Below are positions 1 to 28,666 of a stretch of DNA of 32,000 nt, piece after piece. Under the pieces are notes generated by a model. It worked only from the letters and a program-made list of their open reading frames with translations, was not told where the DNA came from and searched no databases. Source of the stretch: Candidatus Baldrarchaeum yapensis (GTDB lineage Archaea > Asgardarchaeota > Baldrarchaeia > Baldrarchaeales > Baldrarchaeaceae); NCBI GenBank assembly GCA_016840465.1, contig JAEOSH010000016.1:8926-40925 (forward strand), given 5' to 3'. The position numbers and the translations under genes are program-made. The stretch's first letter is position 1; each line of letters starts with the position of its first letter.

Positions 1-4
1 GAAG

Positions 5-994
5 ATGGACGAGGAAGTGATATTCGGCGTTGGAGCGCTTGTTTTTGGAATACTTATGGTACTTCATAGGTTTTTGATGGGGTTTACGTGGTTTCTTATA
101 ATATTTGCGCTAATGGGAGTTTTTGCGTCGGTATTTCTGGTAAATCTCGTGAAATTTCTGCCGAGGAACTTTCCTCAAGGAAAGGTAAGAGAGTTTGGTA
201 TTTGCGGGTGCATCTTCCTAGCGTATAATACGGGATCAGGTATAAGCGTCATCGTGAGTGTACCGCTCAGCGTCAGAATTGGAGGATGGCGTGGCATTTT
301 CCTCGTATACGGGTTGATTTCTATATTCTTCTCGATCCTATTCTTTGTGATGAACAGAATATTTGCACATTTGTATGGTCCGAGAATGACGAGAAAGGAG
401 GCCGATGGAAAAGGAAAGATAGAACTTGCATTCATAAGGTTGCTTATAGTAGTGATGTTGCTGTTATTTGTGCTTTCTGGGGTCTGGATAGGGGTTACAA
501 CGCAGCTTCCACGAGTTTTGTTGCAGTGTCAGTGGACGCTTTCAGAGGTTGGTATGATCCTAGGTGCTCTATTTTGGTCAGCCGTAGTTGGGAACCTTGT
601 TATTTTGTTCTTACAGAGAAAGTTTGTACGAAAGATACAGGCTAGTACATTCTTGGGATCTGCGGCTGCTCTGGCGATGCTACTCATGACATTACCGTCT
701 CTGCATTTTTTCATATGGCTAGGCTCGGTGATCATAGGGTTTTCATTAGGTAGTATGGAGATTCTCATTGGTTCCCTTATTCTTGAGAGATTTCCATTAG
801 ACTTTTCTGAGGTTGTACTAGGCGTTATAGTAGTGATGTTGCTAATAATGGTTTCTGTCGGAGGGGCTCTCTTTTCCATACTCTTGGGCCTAATAGGGAT
901 GGCTTCCTTAGATAGGGTATATGTATTTCCGGTCATATGTAGCATTCTTCTAATGCTATCGGTCGCGCTCATGTTTTTAATTCCGGGGGATTAG
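5..994 (+). CDS. MFS-type transporter, possibly 5'-truncated by the window edge
   Basis: Two blocks of hydrophobic helices separated by a polar loop, with 'GWRGIFLVYG' resembling the MFS helix-6 motif. The frame is open back to base 2 and 329 aa is short for MFS, so the start may lie upstream. Confidence 0.7.
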   Translation: MDEEVIFGVGALVFGILMVLHRFLMGFTWFLIIFALMGVFASVFLVNLVKFLPRNFPQGKVREFGICGCIFLAYNTGSGISVIVSVPLSVRIGGWRGIFLVYGLISIFFSILFFVMNRIFAHLYGPRMTRKEADGKGKIELAFIRLLIVVMLLLFVLSGVWIGVTTQLPRVLLQCQWTLSEVGMILGALFWSAVVGNLVILFLQRKFVRKIQASTFLGSAAALAMLLMTLPSLHFFIWLGSVIIGFSLGSMEILIGSLILERFPLDFSEVVLGVIVVMLLIMVSVGGALFSILLGLIGMASLDRVYVFPVICSILLMLSVALMFLIPGD

Positions 995-1851: not shown

Positions 1852-3822
1852 TTCTCTGACAAGATGGAGTATGTCACACGCCTCTAGTCCGTAGCTGAAA
1901 GCGGCCGTTATGAGGTTGTGATAGCATGTGGGGCATGCGGTGGAAATTCTCTCGGCATCCGTTTCCTGTGCCATCATACCTATCTTGTCTGACATCTTTT
2001 CTGCGACTTCTTGGATGTACATATTAAGCGGGCCACCACAGCACCATGCGAGATTTCTAGATTCCTCCATTTCCACAAATTCGAGGTTTTCTATGGATTC
2101 CAACACCTTCCTGGGCGGATCATATATTCCGAGGTGGCGACCCAAGTGACATGGGTCATGATACGTTACTTTCACGCTAGATGGCATTTTTAGGCGTAAT
2201 TTTCCACTTTCAATGGCTTCTGCGAGAATTTCGGTTATGTGCAGAAAATTTATACCTGATGCCCTGTAGTGCTTCTTGAATGTCCTGAGGCACATCGGAC
2301 AAACCGTTATAACGGTTGATATGCCCATATTTTCCATCCTTGTCCTAACCATCTCCATTATTTCATTGAACTTCCTCCTCATGCCGATGAGGAGCAACGG
2401 CCCTCCGCAACAAATCTCATCTCTTCCCAAAAAGGTGAAATCCACGCCTAGGAACTCTAATATTTCGAAGGAGGCTACCGCGATGTCTTTATAGCTTATT
2501 GATGCCGTGCATCCAATAAACAGAAGTGTTTCACTTCTTCTTTCCCTCTTGGGCAGTCGCGCTTTAATCCCTGCACCGAATGGATCAAATTTTGTGAGAA
2601 TATTCGTGGCGACATTTTTCAGTTCATCGGGGTACAGATCCTTCTCTTCGCACATCTCCCTAATGGTTTCAACGTGACTTCCCGCATTTATCTGCACTGG
2701 GCAAACTTCTCCGCATCTATAGCATTCAGTACACAAGAACAGCCCCGCTTCTACTCCTCTTTCAAGTCCTTCGGTTAATGCGGTGAAGCATACCCCCCTT
2801 CCGCCAAGATAAGGATCTCCTCCGAAGACGTTTCCAACGGCGTTGTAGACGGGGCATTCAACAAGACAATATCCACAGCCTATACAGTAAAGCAACTCGC
2901 CAAACCCCGCTTCAATGATGTTTGTTCTGCCAGCATCGAGTAAAATAAGACAGAGATCTTTGGCCCCATGTACTCCTCTGTATAGCTTCTTTTCAATATC
3001 GGCCGTCTTACTCGGGCCCGAAACGATATTTATGAATGATGTGGTGATAGAACCTGTCGCGTAGAACGTTTGAAGCAGGACTGCGTTTAGGGCGTCCTCG
3101 AGAGAAGGAAGTATTTTGTCTATTGAGGTTATTATCAGCACCTTTTCACAATCCTGCAAGATACGTGATATGTTTCCCTCATTGTGGATTGCAACGAGCG
3201 CGCCTTCATTTAGGGCTATCGCATTTGCGCCTATTATACCGATTCGAGACTCCCGATACCCCTTCTCGATATTTTCTTTAATTACACGAACAAGAACCTG
3301 AGGATCCGGTTCTACATCGATATTTAAGGTCCTAGATAGCATTTGCGCAATTTCGGTTCTCGAGAAATGGCATGCAGGGCCCGTTGGATGAGCCGGCTTC
3401 TCTCCCGCCAATTGGATTATTCTATCTCCAATATCCGTCTCCACAACCTCAATTCCCTTCCTTTCTAATTCCCTCGTGAGATGTATCTCCTTAGAAACGT
3501 TCGATTTTGATTTCACGAGGACTTTTTCCCCCTTCACCTCCCTTAATATGAAGTTGAGGGCTTCCTCACGTGTTTTTGCGAAATATACGCGAATTCCTGC
3601 AGATTCGAGTTTCGGTATCAACTCGTCCACTGCACGCTTTATATCCTTCAAGATTCTCTCTTTTGCTTCCCGAAGTTTTGCCTTCTTGCGTTCGAGGTCA
3701 CTCATTATACTCATGTTTTGCTTCTGCCTGACTTTGACCTCCATGAAGGCCGCTCGCATCGCATTAAGTCTTTCTTCCGCACTTAATGCTCGCAGGGCCA
3801 ATTCCCTAACGTTCTTGTCCAT
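1831..3822 (-). CDS. LUD-domain Fe-S oxidoreductase: LutB/LldF-like region fused to a CCG-domain (LutA/GlpC/HdrD-like) region
   Basis: LutB-like motifs KSKSNVSKE, ETDIGDRIIQLAGEKPAHP and VSGPSKTADIE; two ferredoxin motifs CIGCGYCLVECP and CTECYRCGEVCP; CCG motifs ICCGG, YHDPCHLGR and WCCGG. Confidence 0.85.
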   Translation of the reverse strand: MDKNVRELALRALSAEERLNAMRAAFMEVKVRQKQNMSIMSDLERKKAKLREAKERILKDIKRAVDELIPKLESAGIRVYFAKTREEALNFILREVKGEKVLVKSKSNVSKEIHLTRELERKGIEVVETDIGDRIIQLAGEKPAHPTGPACHFSRTEIAQMLSRTLNIDVEPDPQVLVRVIKENIEKGYRESRIGIIGANAIALNEGALVAIHNEGNISRILQDCEKVLIITSIDKILPSLEDALNAVLLQTFYATGSITTSFINIVSGPSKTADIEKKLYRGVHGAKDLCLILLDAGRTNIIEAGFGELLYCIGCGYCLVECPVYNAVGNVFGGDPYLGGRGVCFTALTEGLERGVEAGLFLCTECYRCGEVCPVQINAGSHVETIREMCEEKDLYPDELKNVATNILTKFDPFGAGIKARLPKRERRSETLLFIGCTASISYKDIAVASFEILEFLGVDFTFLGRDEICCGGPLLLIGMRRKFNEIMEMVRTRMENMGISTVITVCPMCLRTFKKHYRASGINFLHITEILAEAIESGKLRLKMPSSVKVTYHDPCHLGRHLGIYDPPRKVLESIENLEFVEMEESRNLAWCCGGPLNMYIQEVAEKMSDKIGMMAQETDAERISTACPTCYHNLITAAFSYGLEACDILHLVRESKKESG

Positions 3823-26510: not shown

Positions 26511-26516
26511 TTATAT
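26511..26516 (+). promoter_or_regulatory. TATA box for the C/D sRNA and probably the downstream genes
   Basis: TTATAT lies 24-29 nt upstream of the predicted RNA 5' end at 26540. Confidence 0.45.
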
Positions 26517-26539
26517 TTGGGTTGAGATAAAAGTTGTAT

Positions 26540-26610
26540 AGGGAAGGGGATGACGACATGAGAGTCAGCAGAGGAGAACCGTGAAGATAACGCCGGACTG
26601 ACCCTTCCCT
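26540..26610 (+). ncRNA. Box C/D methylation guide sRNA
   Basis: Perfect 9-bp terminal stem AGGGAAGGG/CCCTTCCCT; box C ATGACGA 26550-26556; 12-nt guide; D' CAGA 26569-26572; C' GTGAAGA 26581-26587; 10-nt guide; box D CTGA 26598-26601. Confidence 0.85.
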
Positions 26611-26629: not shown

Positions 26630-27505
26630 ATGAACTTGGAGACGCTGGTTGTGGGTGCTGTCTTATTTAAAACACGTGGTTCCCGAACTTTTGAAGACTT
26701 TGAGGCTAAAGTTATGGAGTTCGTTGATAAGGCGGCAGAACATCAGGTTAAGCTAATGGTATTTCCGGAATTGCTAACTTTTGATATCGTTGCGGGCGCG
26801 AAAATCTCTCGAACGAGGGAAATGCTTGAACATATCGAGAAATGCAGGGAGAAATACGTCAAGATGTTTTCTGATGCGTCTTCTAGGCACAGCATGATAA
26901 TACTCGGGGGCTCTACCGTTGAAAAAAGAGGAGACGCGTTCTTTAACAGCGCGCATTTGTTCTTGCCAGATGGTAGATTTTTCACCTATCACAAAATACA
27001 TCTCCACTATTTGGATAAGGTTTTAGGAATTCGCCCCGGATTTGCTCCACTTTCCGTGAAGACAGATATAGGGCACATAGGCATTGTGATATGCTATGAT
27101 GTCGGATTTCCCGAACTCTTGAGGTTATTGGCACTAGAAGGCGCATACATATTTCTTGTTCCGAGCGCAGCACCGGGCAGAAGTGCATACTTATGGTTAC
27201 GGTACTGTTGCCATGCACGCGCGATAGAGAACCAGGCAATTGTAGTGCATTCATGCTTAACGGGAGAAGTTGGTGGGGTTTCTTTCAACGGGAAGGCAGC
27301 AATATTCACTTCGACAGATTTTCATTCAGATGGTGTGATTATCGAAAGCGATTGGGATAAAAACGATTTAATAGTTGCCGAAATCAACATGGAGAGATTC
27401 ATGAAGGTGAGGAGGAAGACTCTAGCTCCTACGTTAAAGGATTTACGCCCAGATGTCTATGTGAAATTGTGTGAGATGGGCTGGCGTATGAAGGAGGACG
27501 AATGA
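26630..27505 (+). CDS. Carbon-nitrogen hydrolase (nitrilase superfamily)
   Basis: Glu-Lys-Cys triad motifs FPEL, YHKIHL and ICYDVGFPE; HARAIENQ; GGTGGTGA SD. Confidence 0.92.
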   Translation: MNLETLVVGAVLFKTRGSRTFEDFEAKVMEFVDKAAEHQVKLMVFPELLTFDIVAGAKISRTREMLEHIEKCREKYVKMFSDASSRHSMIILGGSTVEKRGDAFFNSAHLFLPDGRFFTYHKIHLHYLDKVLGIRPGFAPLSVKTDIGHIGIVICYDVGFPELLRLLALEGAYIFLVPSAAPGRSAYLWLRYCCHARAIENQAIVVHSCLTGEVGGVSFNGKAAIFTSTDFHSDGVIIESDWDKNDLIVAEINMERFMKVRRKTLAPTLKDLRPDVYVKLCEMGWRMKEDE

Positions 27506-27857: not shown

Positions 27858-28129
27858 TATTGGAGAATTTCATTCACGTGATACGTTAACTAATTGCGGA
27901 TAGGAGCGCATCATGACCCCTATTTGAAAACTCATTTTTGCGATTTTGAACATTTTATCTAGTAACATTGATGGCATTTTCCCGTCTTGTAGCAGAGTTG
28001 TAATACTGCGAGCGTTTTTACGCCCGTGTTAATACTTATCCTTAATAGTGGTTCGAAACAGAACACTTTTTTGGATTAATTGTCGTTTTGACATTTTTTG
28101 CAGTCATGTTACAACAGGGAGGTTTTGAT

Positions 28130-28666
28130 ATGAGCCAAGAGGTCATGAAGATCCACAGGATGATGATGAGACTGACTGCGGAACTCCGTGACATTTACGA
28201 GGACTTTTTGGGGAAACTTTATTCCGTGTTTGACGAGATGCCCTTGGAAGGCAACGGTGCTGAAATTTCAGAAAGAATAGTTTCACTTGCGGACGACTTC
28301 TATCGCAAACTTGTGTGGAGGGTCATCAGGTTCATAAGGCTATCCGTGCTTCCCGAAGCCGCGGAAGGGAGAGATTCTACGAGCGGGGGTAACTTTTTAG
28401 ATGTTATAAAGAAATTTCAGGAGGCCGTGAAGTCGCGTTTACTCGCCGATATGAAGTATAGGGTGTTATCGGTTCTCGAAAACGCCAAAAGTATGACTTA
28501 TAAGGATCTCGCGAAGGTCCTAGGGATTAGCGAGAGTTCTCTTCGAAAATACATCAGGGAGCTTGAGGCTCTTAACTTTGTAAAAGTGGACAAATCCGTG
28601 AGACCATTCAGGGTAGTCTTTCTGGGGGCTCCATGGGTTTACTCGGCCTCTGAACTTTCGGTGTGA
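28130..28666 (+). CDS. Protein with helical N-terminus and C-terminal winged HTH (putative regulator)
   Basis: MTYKDLAKVLGISESSLRKYIRELEALNFV; ATG 28130 follows GGGAGG. Confidence 0.78.
   Translation: MSQEVMKIHRMMMRLTAELRDIYEDFLGKLYSVFDEMPLEGNGAEISERIVSLADDFYRKLVWRVIRFIRLSVLPEAAEGRDSTSGGNFLDVIKKFQEAVKSRLLADMKYRVLSVLENAKSMTYKDLAKVLGISESSLRKYIRELEALNFVKVDKSVRPFRVVFLGAPWVYSASELSV

Follow-up and report, generated by a model that had tools for sequence, protein, structure and literature searches.

Introduction

The closest described counterparts of the RNA reported here are archaeal box C/D sRNAs whose D' guide is directed at a single cytidine of the 23S rRNA. D' guides to 23S C2186 have been catalogued in four archaea, as sR104 of Methanococcus maripaludis (Mma), sR20 of Sulfolobus acidocaldarius (Sac), sR47 of Methanopyrus kandleri (Mka) and sR201 of Ignicoccus hospitalis (Iho) (Dennis et al., 2015; PMC4644070). 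Because E. coli A1912 is position 2178 of the alignment used in that catalogue (Dennis et al., 2015; PMC4644070), C2186 corresponds to E. coli C1920, and with guides already on record in four archaea this target site is not new for the domain. The sR104, sR47 and sR201 RNAs, which come from Euryarchaeota and Crenarchaeota rather than Asgard lineages, share the predicted D' target and differ in the partner D guide: there is none in Mma sR104, while that of Mka sR47 is assigned to G2163 and that of Iho sR201 to C2260*. A RiboMeth-seq study on Pyrococcus does not list the methylation sites (PMC7758197).

In bacteria, the likeness is one of outcome, not of mechanism or ancestry. The type I and type II TlyA proteins are protein-only enzymes that need no guide RNA; they yield 2'-O-methylcytidine at a nucleotide of the subunit interface, C1920 of 23S helix 69 (PMC5778110). 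The AA[Cm]GGU fragment reported for TlyA substrates agrees with the C1920 numbering (PMC5778110).

The locus described here lies in the 32,000-nt stretch of DNA from an uncultured Asgard archaeon that was analysed as a whole (hereafter the window). Judged from its sequence, the element at 26540-26610 on the forward strand is a true archaeal box C/D guide RNA of an ordinary type, stand-alone and about 71 nt long. Its particular features are the Asgard host, an unusually long terminal stem, variant boxes, a minimal 8-bp predicted duplex with the target and a short, unplaced D arm, none of which departs from the known archaeal double-guide box C/D kind.

One of the catalogued RNAs, Sac-sR20, can be compared in more detail. 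Like the Asgard RNA, it is a double-guide sRNA with its D' guide predicted on C2186, and the motif GAGxGUC occupies guide positions 9-3 in both. For its D guide, the prediction falls in helix 71 (U2222), where the only conserved candidate site of the Asgard D guide is also located. The D' guides of Sac-sR20 (AAAGAGGGUCGC) and Mma-sR104 (AAAGAGGGUUAU) stand in the same register as that of the Asgard RNA (PMC4644070, Additional file 1). They read GAGGGU(C/U) where the Asgard RNA has GAGAGUC, the difference to be expected if the helix 69 of those organisms had C in place of U. Sac-sR20 differs in its canonical boxes (AUGAUGA, AUGA, AUGAUGA and CUGA), in its two 12-nt guides and in printed flanks that show no obvious long terminal stem, as against the 9-bp stem, the variant boxes AUGACGA, CAGA and GUGAAGA and the 10-nt D spacer of the Asgard RNA. 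Its D' guide would pair over 11-12 nt if the predicted target were fully complementary, compared with 8 contiguous nt in the Asgard RNA. Shared ancestry and convergence on one site could each account for the likeness, the RNAs being very short and their guides bound to the target sequence.

Results and discussion

Architecture and genomic setting of the element

The 71-nt element is intergenic, flanked by a winged-helix gene (25634-26341, reverse strand) on one side and by a carbon-nitrogen hydrolase gene (start at 26630) on the other. The initial annotation, made from the letters alone, had proposed a guide RNA here with four boxes, two guides, a 9-bp stem, one unpaired nucleotide before box C and an upstream TATA box; each of these parts is present exactly where it had been placed (Table 1).

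Table 1. Features of the box C/D sRNA locus; positions refer to the window.
Feature	Position	Strand	Basis or remark
TATA-like promoter element TTATATTT	26511..26518	+	sequence; its centre precedes the start of the stem by ~25 nt
5' strand of the 9-bp terminal stem (K-turn stem I), AGGGAAGGG	26540..26548	+	perfect complement of 26602-26610
Unpaired G before box C	26549	+	sequence
Box C, AUGACGA (DNA ATGACGA)	26550..26556	+	consensus RUGAUGA; C instead of U at position 5
D' guide CAUGAGAGUCAG (DNA CATGAGAGTCAG), 12 nt	26557..26568	+	positions 2-9 from D' predicted to pair with 23S helix 69
Box D', CAGA	26569..26572	+	GUGA at the same place in relatives
Variable loop GGAGAACC between D' and C'	26573..26580	+	8 nt; 11 nt in same-order relatives
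Box C', GUGAAGA (DNA GTGAAGA)	26581..26587	+	AUGAUCU or AUGAACU in relatives
D guide UAACGCCGGA (DNA TAACGCCGGA), 10 nt	26588..26597	+	without established target
Box D, CUGA (DNA CTGA)	26598..26601	+	CCGA in three relatives
3' strand of the terminal stem, CCCUUCCCU (DNA CCCTTCCCT)	26602..26610	+	exact reverse complement of AGGGAAGGG

Boxes C and D carry the elements of a K-turn: AUGACGA and CUGA retain the GA/GA dinucleotides and the G6-C1 pair, the 3-nt bulge consists of the unpaired G and the following AU, and the terminal stem directly abuts it, so that the C at box C position 5 is the only deviation. Boxes C' (GUGAAGA) and D' (CAGA) likewise have the make-up of a K-loop, with C'6-D'1 as a G-C pair. 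The D' spacer has the usual length of 12 nt and the D spacer is 10 nt, a length also found in all the same-order relatives described below. The folding energy of the element taken alone is unremarkable (z = -1.9).

The genome that contains the window (G000) is an archaeal assembly of 2.27 Mb in 100 contigs with 46% G+C. It encodes the proteins of a C/D ribonucleoprotein (RNP), with fibrillarin (PF01269, 349 bits) and Nop5 (PF01798, 259 bits) adjacent on contig C64, and two L7Ae-family proteins (PF01248, 108.6 and 84 bits) on C67 and C94. A regular expression for the full box architecture matched 46 sites in this genome and 2 in the reversed-sequence control. The high number of sites relative to the control, together with the RNP protein genes, indicates that the organism runs a large C/D system into which the locus fits. 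The terminal stem of the element is the longest among the 46 sites (9 bp, the next being 6 bp). Many of the 46 candidates have AUGACUG as box C' and AGGA as box D'.

At gathering thresholds, Rfam returned no match for 26540-26610. In E-value mode, weak end-to-end matches (15-16.5 bits, E 0.16-0.73) were obtained to the archaeal C/D families sR17 (16.5 bits, cut-off 36), sR2 (15.9 bits, cut-off 42) and sR60 (15.0 bits, cut-off 50). Since these three families are lineage-specific, such sub-threshold scores exclude membership in them, not in the C/D class.

Conservation in Asgard archaea

Counterparts of 70 nt were found in all four sampled genomes of the same order (G001-G004, which belong to another family), each of them intergenic. 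Their layout begins with the stem strand UUUGAGG, box C as AUGAGGA or AUGAUGA, the D' guide CAUGAGAGUCAG, box D' GUGA and an 11-nt loop, and continues with box C' as AUGAUCU or AUGAACU, a 10-nt D guide, box D as CUGA or CCGA and the stem strand CCUCAAG or CCUCAAA. The D' guide is identical at 12/12 positions in three of these genomes and at 11/12 in the fourth (UAUGAGAGUCAG); within the order it is thus near-invariant, in contrast to the changing loop, stem and D guide. C' and box D are equally far apart in the window sRNA and in its relatives. An ATTT(A)A element occurs at an equal upstream distance in the four homologues, with ATTT invariant in the alignment.

A covariance model built from these five sequences (the window and the four relatives) recovered all five, the four relatives at E 1e-16 to 1e-23, and also a weaker full-length match (E 0.005) in G010, from a different family; it did not reach beyond Asgard archaea. 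In the terminal stem, all seven modelled pairs have changed on both sides among 13 related sRNAs, with 93.6% of cells paired. None of 500 shuffles reached the observed proportion of paired cells or the covariation score, and slid controls were 21-67% paired. The alignment behind these values comprised 15 matches, namely the 13 related sRNAs and two spurious ones, and was fitted to the model, a procedure that favours the structure; the differing terminal stems are plainly complementary in the raw sequences too. The C'6-D'1 pair shows a further compensatory change, the four relatives having C-G (AUGAUCU with GUGA) where the window has G-C. Together, the compensatory stem changes and this swap fix the register of the boxes.

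The position of the element raises the question of whether it might instead be a structured 5' leader of the carbon-nitrogen hydrolase mRNA (ATG at 26630), for instance a regulatory K-turn bound by L7Ae. Only 20 nt separate its 3' end from the start codon, the window has no T-run terminator after it, and the downstream ORF is indeed a CN_hydrolase. Against a leader role, the RNAs of the four relatives lie between other ORFs: a tblastn comparison of the window's four flanking proteins with the neighbours of the four homologues gave no match, and synteny is absent. Moreover, a T-run follows the homologue in two of the four relatives, it is the guide that is conserved and not the K-turn alone, and co-transcription with the neighbouring gene would be compatible with processing into an sRNA. 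We regard a leader element as very improbable, and read the element as a stand-alone guide RNA.

To look further afield, 400 Asgard genomes were searched with a pattern that required the guide core GAGAGUCA, giving 37 matches as against 13 in a backwards control. A complete C/D architecture is present in about 13 of the 37 and absent from most of the remaining matches with loci; seven further ones without a locus were left out. As the core was fixed by the search, the helix 69 match of the additional sequences exists by construction, and only the register, the C/D architecture and the variable flanks add information. The core stands one nucleotide from D' in the order (five genomes), in the genus of G010 (4/4) and in G176, and the flanking guide positions vary: the D' guide and box D' read GGUUGAGAGUCAU and GGGA in the four genomes of G010's genus, and GCAGAGAGUCAG and UUGA in G176. 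In another Asgard genus (g41, loci L042-L044), the spacing between the same core and D' is ambiguous (11 or 13 nt), and the predicted methylation site would move by one nucleotide.

Taken with the encoded fibrillarin, Nop5 and L7Ae, the Asgard counterparts and the compensatory changes establish that the sequence at 26540-26610 is a real gene.

The covariance model also scored a much smaller structure elsewhere in the window. At 28152-28182 on the forward strand, just 5 nt separate box C (AUGAUGA) from box D (CUGA) in a mini hairpin of 31 nt, whose closing stem of 7 positions (UCCACAG / CUGCGGA) includes one mismatch. The hairpin lies within the 5' part of a winged-helix regulator ORF (28088-28666) and, at a covariance-model E of 0.078, may be a chance occurrence or a stand-alone K-turn.

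The D' guide and helix 69 of the 23S rRNA

The 23S rRNA gene of the organism (C59:1031-4195) has a helix 69 that reads UAACUAUGACUCUCUUAAGG (also given as GUAACUAUGACUCUCUUAAGGUAGCC), exactly the eukaryote-type sequence that the initial annotation had used when it counted eight contiguous pairs with the D' guide. Those eight pairs are therefore found in the organism's own rRNA as well: guide positions 2-9 are Watson-Crick complementary to UGACUCUC in helix 69, position 11 could add an isolated A-U pair, and positions 1, 10 and 12 are mismatched. Guide position 5 (G, 26564) stands opposite the C of AUGA[C]UCUC, which is nt 2148 of the 23S rRNA (C59:3178). Aligning the loop as U1911 A1912 A1913 C1914 U1915 A1916 U1917 G1918 A1919 C1920 makes this nucleotide the equivalent of E. 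coli C1920, the one to which the N+5 rule had already been taken to point. A complement search of the organism's stable RNAs, proposed at the outset as a check, thus recovered the 8-nt helix 69 match and left the suggested target standing. The UGACUCUC sequence and the pairing also hold for G001, the sole same-order relative with a 23S rRNA, and for G010.

Eight base pairs are at the lower end of what archaeal guides use. In a shuffled-guide null, the 7.3 kb of own rRNA and tRNA offered 70/200 guides an equally long run across N+5, so that the match is at chance level when taken alone. The D' target claimed from the window sequence is accordingly supported on comparative grounds, while the 8-bp match on which the claim was based is in itself indistinguishable from chance. 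What carries the assignment to helix 69 is that the guide core and its register are kept in relatives, and that published guides aim at the same nucleotide in four archaea.

This chance-level match leaves room for the view that the sRNA is real but its complementarity to helix 69 coincidental, the D' guide being an orphan or acting on another RNA, for instance a tRNA precursor, an mRNA or the 5' portion of the 16S rRNA that the assembly lacks. Consistent with such a view, conservation within the order extends to all 12 guide positions, the three that are unpaired with helix 69 (1, 10 and 12) among them. The 16S rRNA also leaves space for another target: only Rfam model positions 706-1467 of the own 16S rRNA are assembled, so that the complement search covered that part and the first ~705 nt are missing, and none of the assemblies of the four same-order relatives contains a 16S rRNA. 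Yet full-length 16S rRNAs of four other Asgard genomes offered at most 7 paired positions with the D' guide, and no alternative target common to the relatives emerged. In the own genome, the only exact complement of the D' guide is the antisense strand of the gene itself. Across G000-G004, 12-mers with at most one mismatch to the D' complement occurred at chance frequency, with none common to the genomes; in G001 and G003, the only such match was the sRNA gene. Other Asgard families keep just the core that pairs with helix 69, at the same distance from D', and the D' guides of four other archaea are aimed at the same nucleotide. A coincidental match is, on balance, quite improbable.

An 11-nt match at C24:313-324 was considered as a D' target and rejected. 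It lies at the edge of a GC-rich unannotated element that has no Rfam match and whose paralogue on C9 lacks the complement, a further point against a target other than helix 69; two sites in G004 with the same 12-mer lie in unrelated sequence. The element itself is of some interest. Two related GC-rich, non-coding-looking segments of ~150-200 nt occur in G000, at C24:~1-330 (reverse strand, locus L071) and C9:1183-1373 (reverse strand), with 86% identity over 98 nt, a position downstream of TATA-like boxes and several GAUGA motifs. Neither matches Rfam even at E 10, and they may represent a structured RNA that has escaped annotation, perhaps one of the H/ACA or omega-RNA type.

The reading that we consider highly probable from these sequence comparisons is an archaeal box C/D sRNA whose D' guide would direct modification of the C1920 equivalent in helix 69 and whose D arm is labile or orphan. 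Support thus exists for one arm being set to direct sugar methylation of this cytidine. By analogy with characterised C/D RNPs, boxes C and D with the 9-bp stem would form a K-turn and boxes C' and D' a K-loop, both bound by L7Ae, upon which Nop5 and fibrillarin would assemble. The 12-nt D' guide would then pair with the 3' side of helix 69 in the 23S precursor (UGACUCUC), and fibrillarin would 2'-O-methylate the C opposite guide position 5, the subunit-interface C1920 equivalent. At best, the D arm would pair weakly, over 7 bp, with the helix 71 3' strand. No TlyA was found in the own genome (best score 22 bits, cut-off 185.8); with no enzyme of that type encoded, the guide would be the route to the methyl mark.

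The architecture expression also recovered a second helix 69 guide in the own genome, on C9 near 10785. Its D guide CUCAUAGUUACG pairs with GUAACUAUGA in the helix 69 loop; the complement of its D' guide, CCUUGCCGGAUAA, is a 23S stretch downstream of helix 69 assigned to the 5' strand of helix 71. This sRNA shares with the 26540-26610 sRNA the genome, the RNP and the rRNA helix, and differs in its target (A1913 in the loop, as against C1920 in the 3' strand) and its terminal stem (5 bp, as against 9 bp).

The D guide

The initial annotation had been unable to place the D guide, and after a search of the organism's own rRNA and tRNA it is still without a convincing target: the best matches were at chance level, equalled by 90/200 shuffled guides. 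Exact complements of the D guide occur at 8 other sites in the 2.27 Mb, a number near the chance level estimated for a 10-mer (~4), and none of them falls on the contigs with aragorn tRNAs or on the rRNA contig C59. Among the relatives, the D guide differs, reading AAACGCCGAC in G001 and G004, GAAUAUCAAU in G002 and GAACAUUGAU in G003.

Several candidate sites were discarded. The segments around nt 147 and nt 3014 of the own 23S rRNA are not conserved in G001, and the best site of the G001 D guide (nt 1977) is not conserved in G000. A 16S site of another Asgard genome that fits the G001 D guide (GAAGGCGUUUAG) reads GAAGGCGCCCGG in the own genome. The G001 D guide can also be set against the 5' end of the intron in that organism's 23S rRNA, with 9/12 positions paired and a mismatch at N+5; the own genome is intron-less and the pairing was treated as chance.

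The remaining candidate, located 40 nt further downstream than the D' site, is the 3' strand of helix 71, ACCGGCGU; it offers 7 bp to the D guide and would place N+5 opposite the G that corresponds to E. coli A1960 (own 23S nt 2188). One could accordingly envisage an RNA with two functions, in which the D' arm methylates C1920 while the short D arm pairs with ACCGGCGU and, during folding, holds the helix 69-71 region together or keeps it open, whether or not a second methylation takes place. Of the three best D-guide sites in the own 23S rRNA, only that in helix 71 indeed falls in sequence that G000 and G001 share without change. Sac-sR20, which has the same D' target, has its D guide predicted on U2222 (E. 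coli ~1956) in the same helix, and helices 68-71 are a methylation hotspot (Dennis et al., 2015; PMC4644070). The D guide of the counterpart in G176, judged against the sequence conserved in G000, G001 and G010, forms 9 contiguous pairs with AAAUGCCUU, 16 nt downstream of the D' site. Yet 7 bp is below the best chance matches, the helix 71 pairing shrinks to 6 bp in G001 and G004, and the D guides of G002 and G003 are unrelated. The 10-nt spacer is also shorter than the preferred length, the archaeal RNP reportedly favouring 12 nt. A combined guide and chaperone role is rather unlikely.

Most likely, the D arm is an evolutionarily labile or orphan guide. The pattern would be that of a stable D' arm beside a labile D arm, often aimed within the helix 68-71 hotspot and weak or orphan in the own genome. 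A few substitutions can give rise to orphan guides (Lui et al., 2018; PMC6009581).

Two observations on D guides in other genomes may be added. Those of the four counterparts in G010's genus (L049-L052) differ from one another at few positions (GAGUUAACCU, GAAGCAACCU, GAAGCAGCCU and GAAGUAGCCU). The D guide in G020 has a perfect 10-nt complement in the 16S locus of G015, at nt 1320 of a 2426-nt 16S region; no complementary site occurs in the 16S or 23S rRNA of G010 itself.

A helix 69 methylation site possibly shared among Archaea

An uncultured Asgard genome gains a well-supported, hitherto unannotated guide RNA, from which a particular ribose methylation at the subunit interface can be predicted. 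As a rule, archaeal lineages do not share their precise methylation sites (Lui et al., 2018; PMC6009581). Set against this generality, guides to the same C in Sulfolobus, Methanococcus, Methanopyrus, Ignicoccus and an Asgard archaeon make the C1920 guide one exception. It is conceivable, and we advance it tentatively, that D'-guided methylation of the helix 69 cytidine belongs to the few modifications precisely conserved across Archaea, with the D' arm stable and the D arm freely replaced. If so, Euryarchaeota, Crenarchaeota and several Asgard families would keep the same RNA-guided mark, a modification that bacteria reach with a protein enzyme, TlyA. Asgard archaea, with a helix 69 identical to that of eukaryotes, would then retain the mark; to our knowledge, methylation at the C1920 equivalent has not been reported in yeast or human rRNA. 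Beyond this, the result is routine annotation and leaves the known working of C/D sRNAs unchanged.

Other features of the 23S rRNA

The 23S rRNA genes examined for the target site show further differences between the two organisms of the order. That of G001 is interrupted directly after helix 69 by a 583-nt intron (L024:955-1537, reverse strand), with the junctions ...GUGACUCUCUUA / intron / AAGGUAGCC. The intron has an ORF (L024:948-1457, reverse strand) for a LAGLIDADG endonuclease of 169 aa (PF00961, E 1.5e-15). Its 5' end includes GGGAGAGUC, which could pair with the exon strand to which the D' guide is complementary. The own 23S rRNA is intron-less at this insertion point. It contains a 17-nt insertion at nt 156-172 and, near the 3' end, a stretch of ~127 nt (nt 3020-3146; C59:4050-4176) that is missing from the G001 23S rRNA, its total length being 3165 nt as compared with a model of 2987 positions.
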